This document shows, one piece after another, positions 37,490 to 38,002 of a stretch of DNA of 64,000 nt (positions are counted from its first letter, which is position 1; every line of letters begins with the position of its first letter). Under the pieces are notes generated by a model, which searched no databases, was not told where the DNA came from, and was given only the letters and a program-made list of their open reading frames with translations. The DNA comes from Eledone cirrhosa (taxonomy: Eukaryota): positions 28,334,001-28,398,000 of the forward strand of contig OZ024763.1 of the NCBI GenBank assembly GCA_964016885.1, in the 5' to 3' direction. A program made the position numbers and the translations under genes.

Positions 37490-38002
37490 TATAAGTTGAA
37501 AAAAATGAAAACGAAATTTCATTTCTCACTCTTAGTATGGCACTTACTTAAATGTAAGTATGTATGTATACGTACAATATATGTATACATACATACTGAC
37601 ATTTAAGTAAGTGCCATACTAAGAGTGAGAAATGAAATTTCGTTTTCATTTTTTTCAACTTATCGTCAGGTATGCCTGACCGATTTAACTCTCTCAATAT
37701 GCAAATTAGGCTGCTCAGCCGTTAATTTTCATAAGGAAAGTATATACTTTCGAACGTTCAACTATCTGGCAGATGGGTATACGGTGCTGATGATAGCTAA
37801 CAAGCTTGAAACTAGTACATCTTTCCTGTGTCAGTGTTGAACAAAAAGGTGACGTGGTTGCCTTAACACCGTATGGCATAAATTCAGGCTGTTCAGTTTG
37901 TTTACAAACGAACAAAGCGGCGTTATAATAAGCGTCCGCTAAACTGATGCGTGCATATATGTATGTGTACCTGTATGTATATATGTATACATACATACTT
38001 AC

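Follow-up and report, generated by a model that had tools for sequence, protein, structure and literature searches.

An octamer lying a short distance upstream of a hammerhead ribozyme, in two copies of one repeat, raises the question of whether such a unit carries its own promoter, holds an RNA hairpin that is read by a protein, or has kept these bases by chance. In the window, i.e. the whole 64,000-nt stretch of DNA that was analysed, the combination TATGCAAATT-spacer-AATTTTCATA occurs exactly twice, once on each strand (copies A and B, Table 1), and two matches were reached in none of 100 shuffles of the window. As read from the sequence, both copies carry a perfect match to the octamer. 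The octamer and its inverted partner arm are identical in A and B, as the initial annotation had stated, and both copies fold into a hairpin of nine core pairs with the same C·U mismatch, which had likewise been claimed. In copy A, two further outer pairs extend the stem to 31370-31408. The pair probabilities of the core range from 0.86 to 0.99 in B and from 0.86 to 1.0 over both whole-unit ensembles. The spacer, given earlier as 14 or 15 nt, actually measures 16 nt in B and 15 nt in A, the former count being an error. The octamer precedes the core of a type I hammerhead by 88 nt in B and by 100 nt in A, and the reported position of the motif upstream of the ribozyme thus holds in both copies. 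Octamers as such are found in the window at chance level (five, with a shuffle mean of 4.3 and at least five in 41 of 100 shuffles).

Table 1. Coordinates of the motif, the ribozymes, the insertions and associated features in the window
Feature	Position	Strand	Remarks
Motif hairpin, copy B	37698..37733	+	Octamer 37699-37706 forms the 5' arm; 16-nt spacer
Motif hairpin, copy B, 3' arm	37724-37733	+	C·U mismatch present
Motif hairpin, copy A	31372..31406	-	Octamer 31405-31398; 15-nt spacer; 3' arm 31381-31372
Type I hammerhead, B	37775..37827	+	Full descriptor match, stem table; core from 37787
Type I hammerhead, A	31264..31317	-	Descriptor match; extra U in core, CUGUAUGA
Conserved block, B	37866..37883	+	169 bp downstream of octamer; weak PSE-like candidate
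Homologous block, A	31212..31220	-	185 bp downstream of octamer, 60 bp upstream of 31160
Insertion A	30972..31627	-	X-Y-X partial tandem in degenerate (TA)n; 467-nt period
Insertion B	37491..38003	+	Inverted truncated copy, truncated copy and rest of 400-nt unit, in (TA)n
Palindrome in B	37491..37663	.	173 bp, centre 37577; formed by the 3' part of the unit in an inverted, 5'-truncated copy
Separate octamer-containing hairpin	38302..38332	+	z -4.0; partner arm different from that of the A/B motif

The motif is present twice because A and B share descent. The two copies are homologous over the whole unit, with 67% identity over 256 columns and 60% over 345 columns (MAFFT), and their local alignment score of 136 compares with a shuffle maximum of 35. 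The unit is non-coding and has no ORF; it measures 400 nt with 38% GC in B and 467 nt with 35% GC in A. In insertion A, the direct repeat formed by the two X copies (31627-31439 and 31160-30972) is identical at 189 of 189 bp. Insertion B has a 400-bp period, a right end lacking the last 59 nt of the unit, which is also the difference between its two 3' ends, and an inverted truncated copy that is absent from A. All four flanks of A and B consist of (TA)n or degenerate (TA)n. Penelope-like (PLE) insertions are reported to be marked by partial tandems, by a one-sided tail, by (TA)n as the target (in the Hydra and Naiad clades) and, frequently but not always, by an inverted 5'-truncated copy next to the 5' end (PMC8557442), and the two loci display the pseudo-LTR-type partial tandem, the inverted 5'-truncated copy (in B) and the insertion into (TA)n.

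Among the features of retrozymes, A and B possess a type I hammerhead, a GC content below 45% and a highly self-paired RNA. The unit size of about 170-400 nt is matched by B, whereas the 467 nt of A lie above this 2020 range, although within the range of 51-972 bp given for retrozyme units in bioRxiv 10.64898/2026.07.22.740005. At least two tandem units, each with a hammerhead, are found at neither locus, and we therefore class A and B as retrozyme-like non-autonomous PLE copies (solo or partial), not as active retrozymes. Both loci hold one ribozyme together with partial duplications, and the earlier picture of tandem monomers, each driving the next, does not fit either of them. Very probably, the unit is a retrozyme-like element that is not autonomous and relies on the reverse transcriptase of a PLE for its copying. 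Non-LTR retrozymes are reported to derive from PLE pseudo-LTRs (bioRxiv 10.64898/2026.07.22.740005). No terminal similarity of A or B to an autonomous PLE was seen in four octopus consensuses (by eye) or in the window (profile searches). The repeat annotation of Octopus vulgaris lists 190 Penelope-like families, and the words 'hammerhead' and 'ribozyme' do not appear in its main text.

Searches of the window, 64% of which was masked as microsatellite or low-complexity sequence, with a profile HMM and a sequence-only covariance model recovered A and B and no further copies. The unique region to the left of B (37291-37468), which contains a hairpin with a one-mismatch octamer on the minus strand, gave no convincing alignment as a relative or terminal-repeat partner. 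A GTDB scan for the motif combined with a hammerhead core yielded no loci. The 33 loci matched there by the motif alone were ascribed to chance, as none has a hammerhead core within 130 nt and none shows any likeness beyond the motif itself. The B core had no match in phages and the A core none in plasmids, and none of the papers on repeats and transposition that mention TATGCAAATT in a text search deals with such elements, judging by title and opening of the abstract.

The hammerhead of B has a U·U at the base of helix II and a predicted cleavage site after A37817, and a palindromic ACUAGU helix III is found in both copies, which account for two of the four hammerhead descriptor matches in the window. 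The A hammerhead is probably impaired by the extra U in its core. No Rfam family reached its gathering score in the window. A matched Hammerhead_HH9 with 29.4 bits (E 3e-5) and remained below the gathering score of 52, and no hammerhead family was among the 64 Rfam matches inspected for B. Matches to miRNA families over the palindrome of B reflect only a long hairpin. Inspection of both strands showed that the defining features of a SECIS or an iron-responsive element are absent.

Folded separately, A and B adopt the same branched architecture, with z scores of -9.5 and -6.4, respectively (none of 100 shuffles in each case), and the ribozyme strand folds more stably than its complement (-10.4 vs -5.6 in A and -6.3 vs -4.6 in B, 60 shuffles). 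The 78 pairs of the twelve homologous stems outside the motif comprise 45 unchanged pairs, six changed on one side, 20 changed on both sides and seven broken ones; that is, 20 of the 33 changed pairs are compensatory, a count that is favoured and inflated by the manual choice of stem registers, made for each copy from its separate fold. In neutral simulations, the both-sided fraction averaged 0.08-0.13, and 20 such pairs were reached in none of 18,000 runs. With RNAalifold on an alignment built from sequence only, both-sided changes still amounted to 12 of 66 pairs. The stem count excludes the hairpin immediately past the unit junction and the UA-rich hairpins located at the unit end, the homology of which is unclear. 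Conservation of the unit's RNA fold by compensatory change is well supported. Since the other stems freely accept double changes, pairing alone does not require the motif to be invariant.

The motif stem is the longest invariant stem of the unit, with nine of nine core pairs and the C·U mismatch unchanged, compared with the 45 of 78 pairs in the twelve other stems. Its two arms (11 and 10 nt) also exceed every other stretch that is identical in A and B, the next being GAAACTAGT in the ribozyme with 9 nt, although in the MAFFT alignment the identical run in the ribozyme likewise reaches 10 nt. A run of nine invariant pairs within one stem arose in 3.2% of 200,000 permutations (stem-aware P 0.032) and in 23% when stem ends were ignored (0.23). 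Fisher's test gave P 0.44 for the whole hairpin (nine invariant of 14 positions) and 0.010 when restricted to the motif core, a selection made post hoc. Thus, the post hoc P for the invariance of the motif is only about 0.03-0.2. The module called invariant by the initial annotation is indeed unchanged in both copies, but with n=2 this goes only marginally beyond chance. We conclude that the motif is the most conserved stem shared by A and B, suggestively rather than securely beyond chance.

An ordinary structural hairpin that stayed unchanged by chance in two copies, with a coincidental octamer match, would explain these data as well. We consider this unlikely, though less so than the other alternatives discussed below. 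At 60% identity, one identical run of at least 10 nt appears anywhere in 55% of permutations and two such runs in 16%, other stems also hold long invariant parts (six of eight pairs in S1 and six of seven in HP5), and the octamer count of the window is what chance predicts. However, two runs of at least 10 nt within 40 columns were found in just 3.6% of 100,000 permutations, the stem-aware frequency quoted above is similarly low, and hammerhead satellites offer a reported precedent for an internal snRNA promoter (PMC2220036), the motif class to which the invariant block belongs. Stem HP5 deserves separate mention: its hairpin loop GUUUAC (37900-37905 on the plus strand and 31187-31182 on the minus strand) and the closing pair are unchanged between the copies. 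HP5 is a second sequence-invariant feature of A and B and another candidate protein-binding site.

The reading that we favour, at a probability of roughly 40%, is that the motif is dual-coded, acting as a POU octamer of an internal snRNA-type promoter in DNA and as an arm of a hairpin in RNA. At the DNA level, a POU factor on the octamer would form the distal element of this promoter, transcription would start about 230-245 bp downstream of the octamer, and at a tandem source locus each unit would drive RNA through the next unit. At the RNA level, the same bases would form the 5' arm of the hairpin, and, if the fold of the whole unit is required, a fixed octamer arm would also fix the partner arm. 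A single sequence-specific constraint would then keep both arms invariant, because the unit must fold and one arm cannot change. It should be noted that a DNA site on the opposite arm leaves the conserved C·U mismatch unexplained, and that two copies are too few to establish a promoter role.

Downstream of the octamer, a conserved PSE-like block lies in the corresponding zone of both copies (Table 1), but its match to the PSE is not significant, with 10 of 15 positions in B (reached in 14% of 300 shuffles) and at best 9 of 15 in the same zone of A, both measured against a vertebrate, not a mollusc, consensus. In B, the block also constitutes the 3' arm of the long-range stem S1, where it pairs with 37612-37619, and this stem explains its conservation between A and B. 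No TATA box is common to the two copies, and our literature search found no report of octamer-bearing U6 promoters in molluscs. The 5' end of copy A (31160-equivalent) maps to a C-A step on the downstream side, 245 bp from the octamer and 60 bp past the PSE-like block. The block had been chosen before the distance to this end was computed, with the start predicted about 60 bp further on, and we roughly estimate that 2-11% of random ends would fall within such a range of distances. This clue comes from a single end (n=1), and there is microhomology of up to 3 nt between the junction and the flanking repeat, as is usual for 5' truncation. The truncated end of B (about 37975-equivalent) does not match: it falls short of the predicted start, being located about 47 nt downstream of it.

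The identity of the two X copies of A at 189 of 189 bp implies that the insertion in the ribozyme core probably predates the insertion of the element. A linear, uncleaved template is plausible if the core was already altered before integration, and its 5' end could be the start site. In vitro, the anole PLE is reported not to require hammerhead cleavage (PMC11167929). The full combination, i.e. a mollusc retrozyme-like element with a working promoter octamer in a hairpin arm, with the 5' end of A as the transcription start and the A lineage spreading as linear, uncleaved transcripts despite an impaired ribozyme, seems to us unlikely, at a probability of about one in four.

Alternatively, the hairpin may be recognised by its sequence, either by the PLE protein that mobilises the unit or by a host RNA-binding protein. 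In a tandem or circular RNA, it would direct reverse transcription to the unit end, located 33-35 nt upstream of the hairpin. The invariance of both arms and of the C·U mismatch around a spacer of variable length (16 vs 15 nt) agrees with this possibility, as do the two inner pairs next to the motif core, which extend the hairpin and differ between the copies through G·U, an exchange that is workable on the ribozyme strand only. The hairpin starts 35 nt (B) and 33 nt (A) 3' of the unit end, and the anole PLE protein is reported to initiate internally and to need RNA located 3' of its start sites (PMC11167929). The constant distance between hairpin and unit end, however, follows from homology alone. 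No autonomous partner PLE bearing the hairpin was found either in the supplement of Craig et al. or among the four octopus consensuses: the text of the supplement, in which line breaks can hide matches, holds no exact TATGCAAATT, and the 3' ends of the four octopus consensuses show no likeness by eye. We regard this protein-bound hairpin as improbable, slightly more so than chance invariance.

Finally, the two arms could form a dyad in double-stranded DNA for a dimeric GIY-YIG endonuclease, which would bias re-insertion into the element's own copies. The preference of the anole PLE protein for an ATT motif and its predicted dimer (PMC11167929) are compatible with this idea, and AATT is present in both arms. 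Nevertheless, neither insertion ends at the motif, both ending in (TA)n, and the spacer differs by one base pair between the copies, making a site of this kind very improbable. The dual coding of octamer and hairpin remains the most economical reading of the motif, closely followed by chance invariance and a hairpin bound by the reverse transcriptase. Taken as a whole, the observation that gave rise to this analysis stands with respect to the motif, but not with respect to the spacer count, the tandem layout or the kinship of a further hairpin (see below). Its interpretation is partly supported: the setting of a ribozyme-bearing repeat mobilised by a retroelement reverse transcriptase is plausible, as are both of the roles proposed for the motif, and the promoter has a precedent, whereas the tandem monomers do not stand.

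Further hairpins and repeats were observed in the window. The hairpin at 38304-38330, described earlier as related to the motif, does fold as a hairpin but is not homologous to A or B: its alignment scores were reached by 22-75% of 200 shuffles, no profile matched it, and the surrounding region has a fold z of only -1.8. A second hammerhead repeat family comprises 53847-54120 (-) and 40790-41032 (+), which are 69% identical, with cores at 53940 and 40939. Its members have a long helix II and no upstream octamer, and the copy at 53940 combines a palindromic helix III with an internal inverted segment. A large inverted repeat at 3425-3810 contains two outward-facing degenerate hammerhead-like cores (3705 + and 3530 -) and an inner palindrome near 3574-3612, and isolated PLE-type hammerhead-like cores were identified at 3288, 59970 and 9592, all on the minus strand. 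Long near-perfect palindromes beside (TA)n were found at 55142-55268, 41097-41384, 16330-16436 and 28481-28631; these are possibly inverted-copy insertions like that of B.

An endonuclease-like C-terminal fragment of a Penelope-like ORF was detected at 48946-49278 (-), and the 3' region behind it contains a hammerhead half-core at 48829. Its part 49242-48961 matches the C-terminus of a 749-aa protein (34% identity, E 8e-12), which, compared by eye, is similar to Hydra-clade PLEs from the supplement of Craig et al. In Pfam, no significant family was found for this fragment or for any of the 12 relatives scanned. Judging by these similarities, Hydra-clade-like PLEs seem to be present in this genome, although the fragment provides no link to A or B. 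The remaining repeats include LINE fragments, present as repeated pieces at 45177-45703 (with a DUF6451 match at 45180-45524), 49279-49662, 52333-52626 and 60244-60702. For one LINE-like fragment, the sole named match among 15 is a protein of Octopus vulgaris (75% identity over 68% of the query), a lead rather than a proof that the host is, as seems probable, an octopus or one of its relatives. A dispersed repeat family has copies at 38860-39125 and 54133-54405, which are 81% identical, and also at 38481-38575. Six pieces of a tRNA-like SINE family, 84-96% identical, lie at 1-106, 490-564, 12012-12132, 33067-33258, 51556-51716 and 53668-53856, and the 3' end of this family resembles the common octopus SINE.

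The closest known systems include the metazoan non-LTR retrozymes. These share with A and B a type I hammerhead, a short palindromic helix III, low GC and a non-coding, highly self-paired unit of near 400 nt (PMC7229834; bioRxiv 10.64898/2026.07.22.740005), and the basal U·U of helix II found in B recurs in axolotl HHR_Amex2 according to the metazoan retrozyme literature. Metazoan retrozymes are, however, described as dimers or multimers, whereas A and B are partial tandems with one ribozyme each, and A further departs from them in its extra core U and its 467-nt unit. The accessible text of PMC7229834 and bioRxiv 10.64898/2026.07.22.740005 does not describe a conserved promoter motif. The pseudo-LTRs of Hydra-clade PLEs resemble A and B in the architectures of partial tandem and inverted copy, in one end being shorter and in the (TA)n target (PMC8557442). 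The pattern of the B hammerhead (an extra U after the core, a U before GAA, and cleavage after GUA/GUU) likewise recurs in the available Hydra-clade table. The end difference in PLE pseudo-LTRs is reported as 30-40 nt (PMC8557442), compared with 59 nt in B, and A and B differ in having no ORF. By eye, they show no likeness to the 3' ends of Hydra-1_Obim and octopus Naiad, as far as these are represented in the sources used.

In vertebrate snRNA promoters, the DSE is located at about -240 and the PSE at about -60, and the OCT-PSE offsets of buffalo U6 and 7SK are given as 137 and 177 bp (PMC3958870). A and B are similar to these in the spacing of the octamer from a downstream PSE-like block (about 170-185 bp) and from the 5' end of A (245 bp), and differ in that the PSE match is not significant, a shared TATA box is absent and the start site is only predicted. 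Retrozymes are reported to be heavily transcribed in all examined tissues (PMC7229834), and a candidate promoter with a predicted start makes the transcription of invertebrate retrozymes testable by mapping of 5' ends. If the complete promoter reading that we hold to be unlikely were true, newt and cephalopod hammerhead repeats would share a promoter logic, by descent or by convergence, and octamer-dependent snRNA-type transcription would reach lophotrochozoans. A binding site for the reverse transcriptase would instead offer a handle on how PLE proteins select non-autonomous templates. Even if the motif is due to chance, the element represents a structured repeat family that lacks annotation.

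The promoter of newt satellite 2, a subject of Coats, Zhang and Epstein in 1994, is reportedly made up of an octamer and a PSE. This hammerhead repeat, also called satellite II, is described as carrying an internal snRNA promoter that drives Pol II, and newt and schistosome are the only sources of hammerhead repeats with a named internal promoter in the available text (PMC2220036). The newt promoter is reported to be functional and belongs to long tandem arrays of a vertebrate (PMC2220036), whereas the one proposed here is a candidate. Our element differs from the newt repeat in having no significant PSE, an octopus-like host and an octamer placed within a paired RNA stem. What the two have in common is that an internal snRNA-type promoter, reported in the newt (PMC2220036) and putative here, lies within a repeat unit that bears a hammerhead, and the mechanism proposed for this locus is accordingly one for which a vertebrate precedent already exists.
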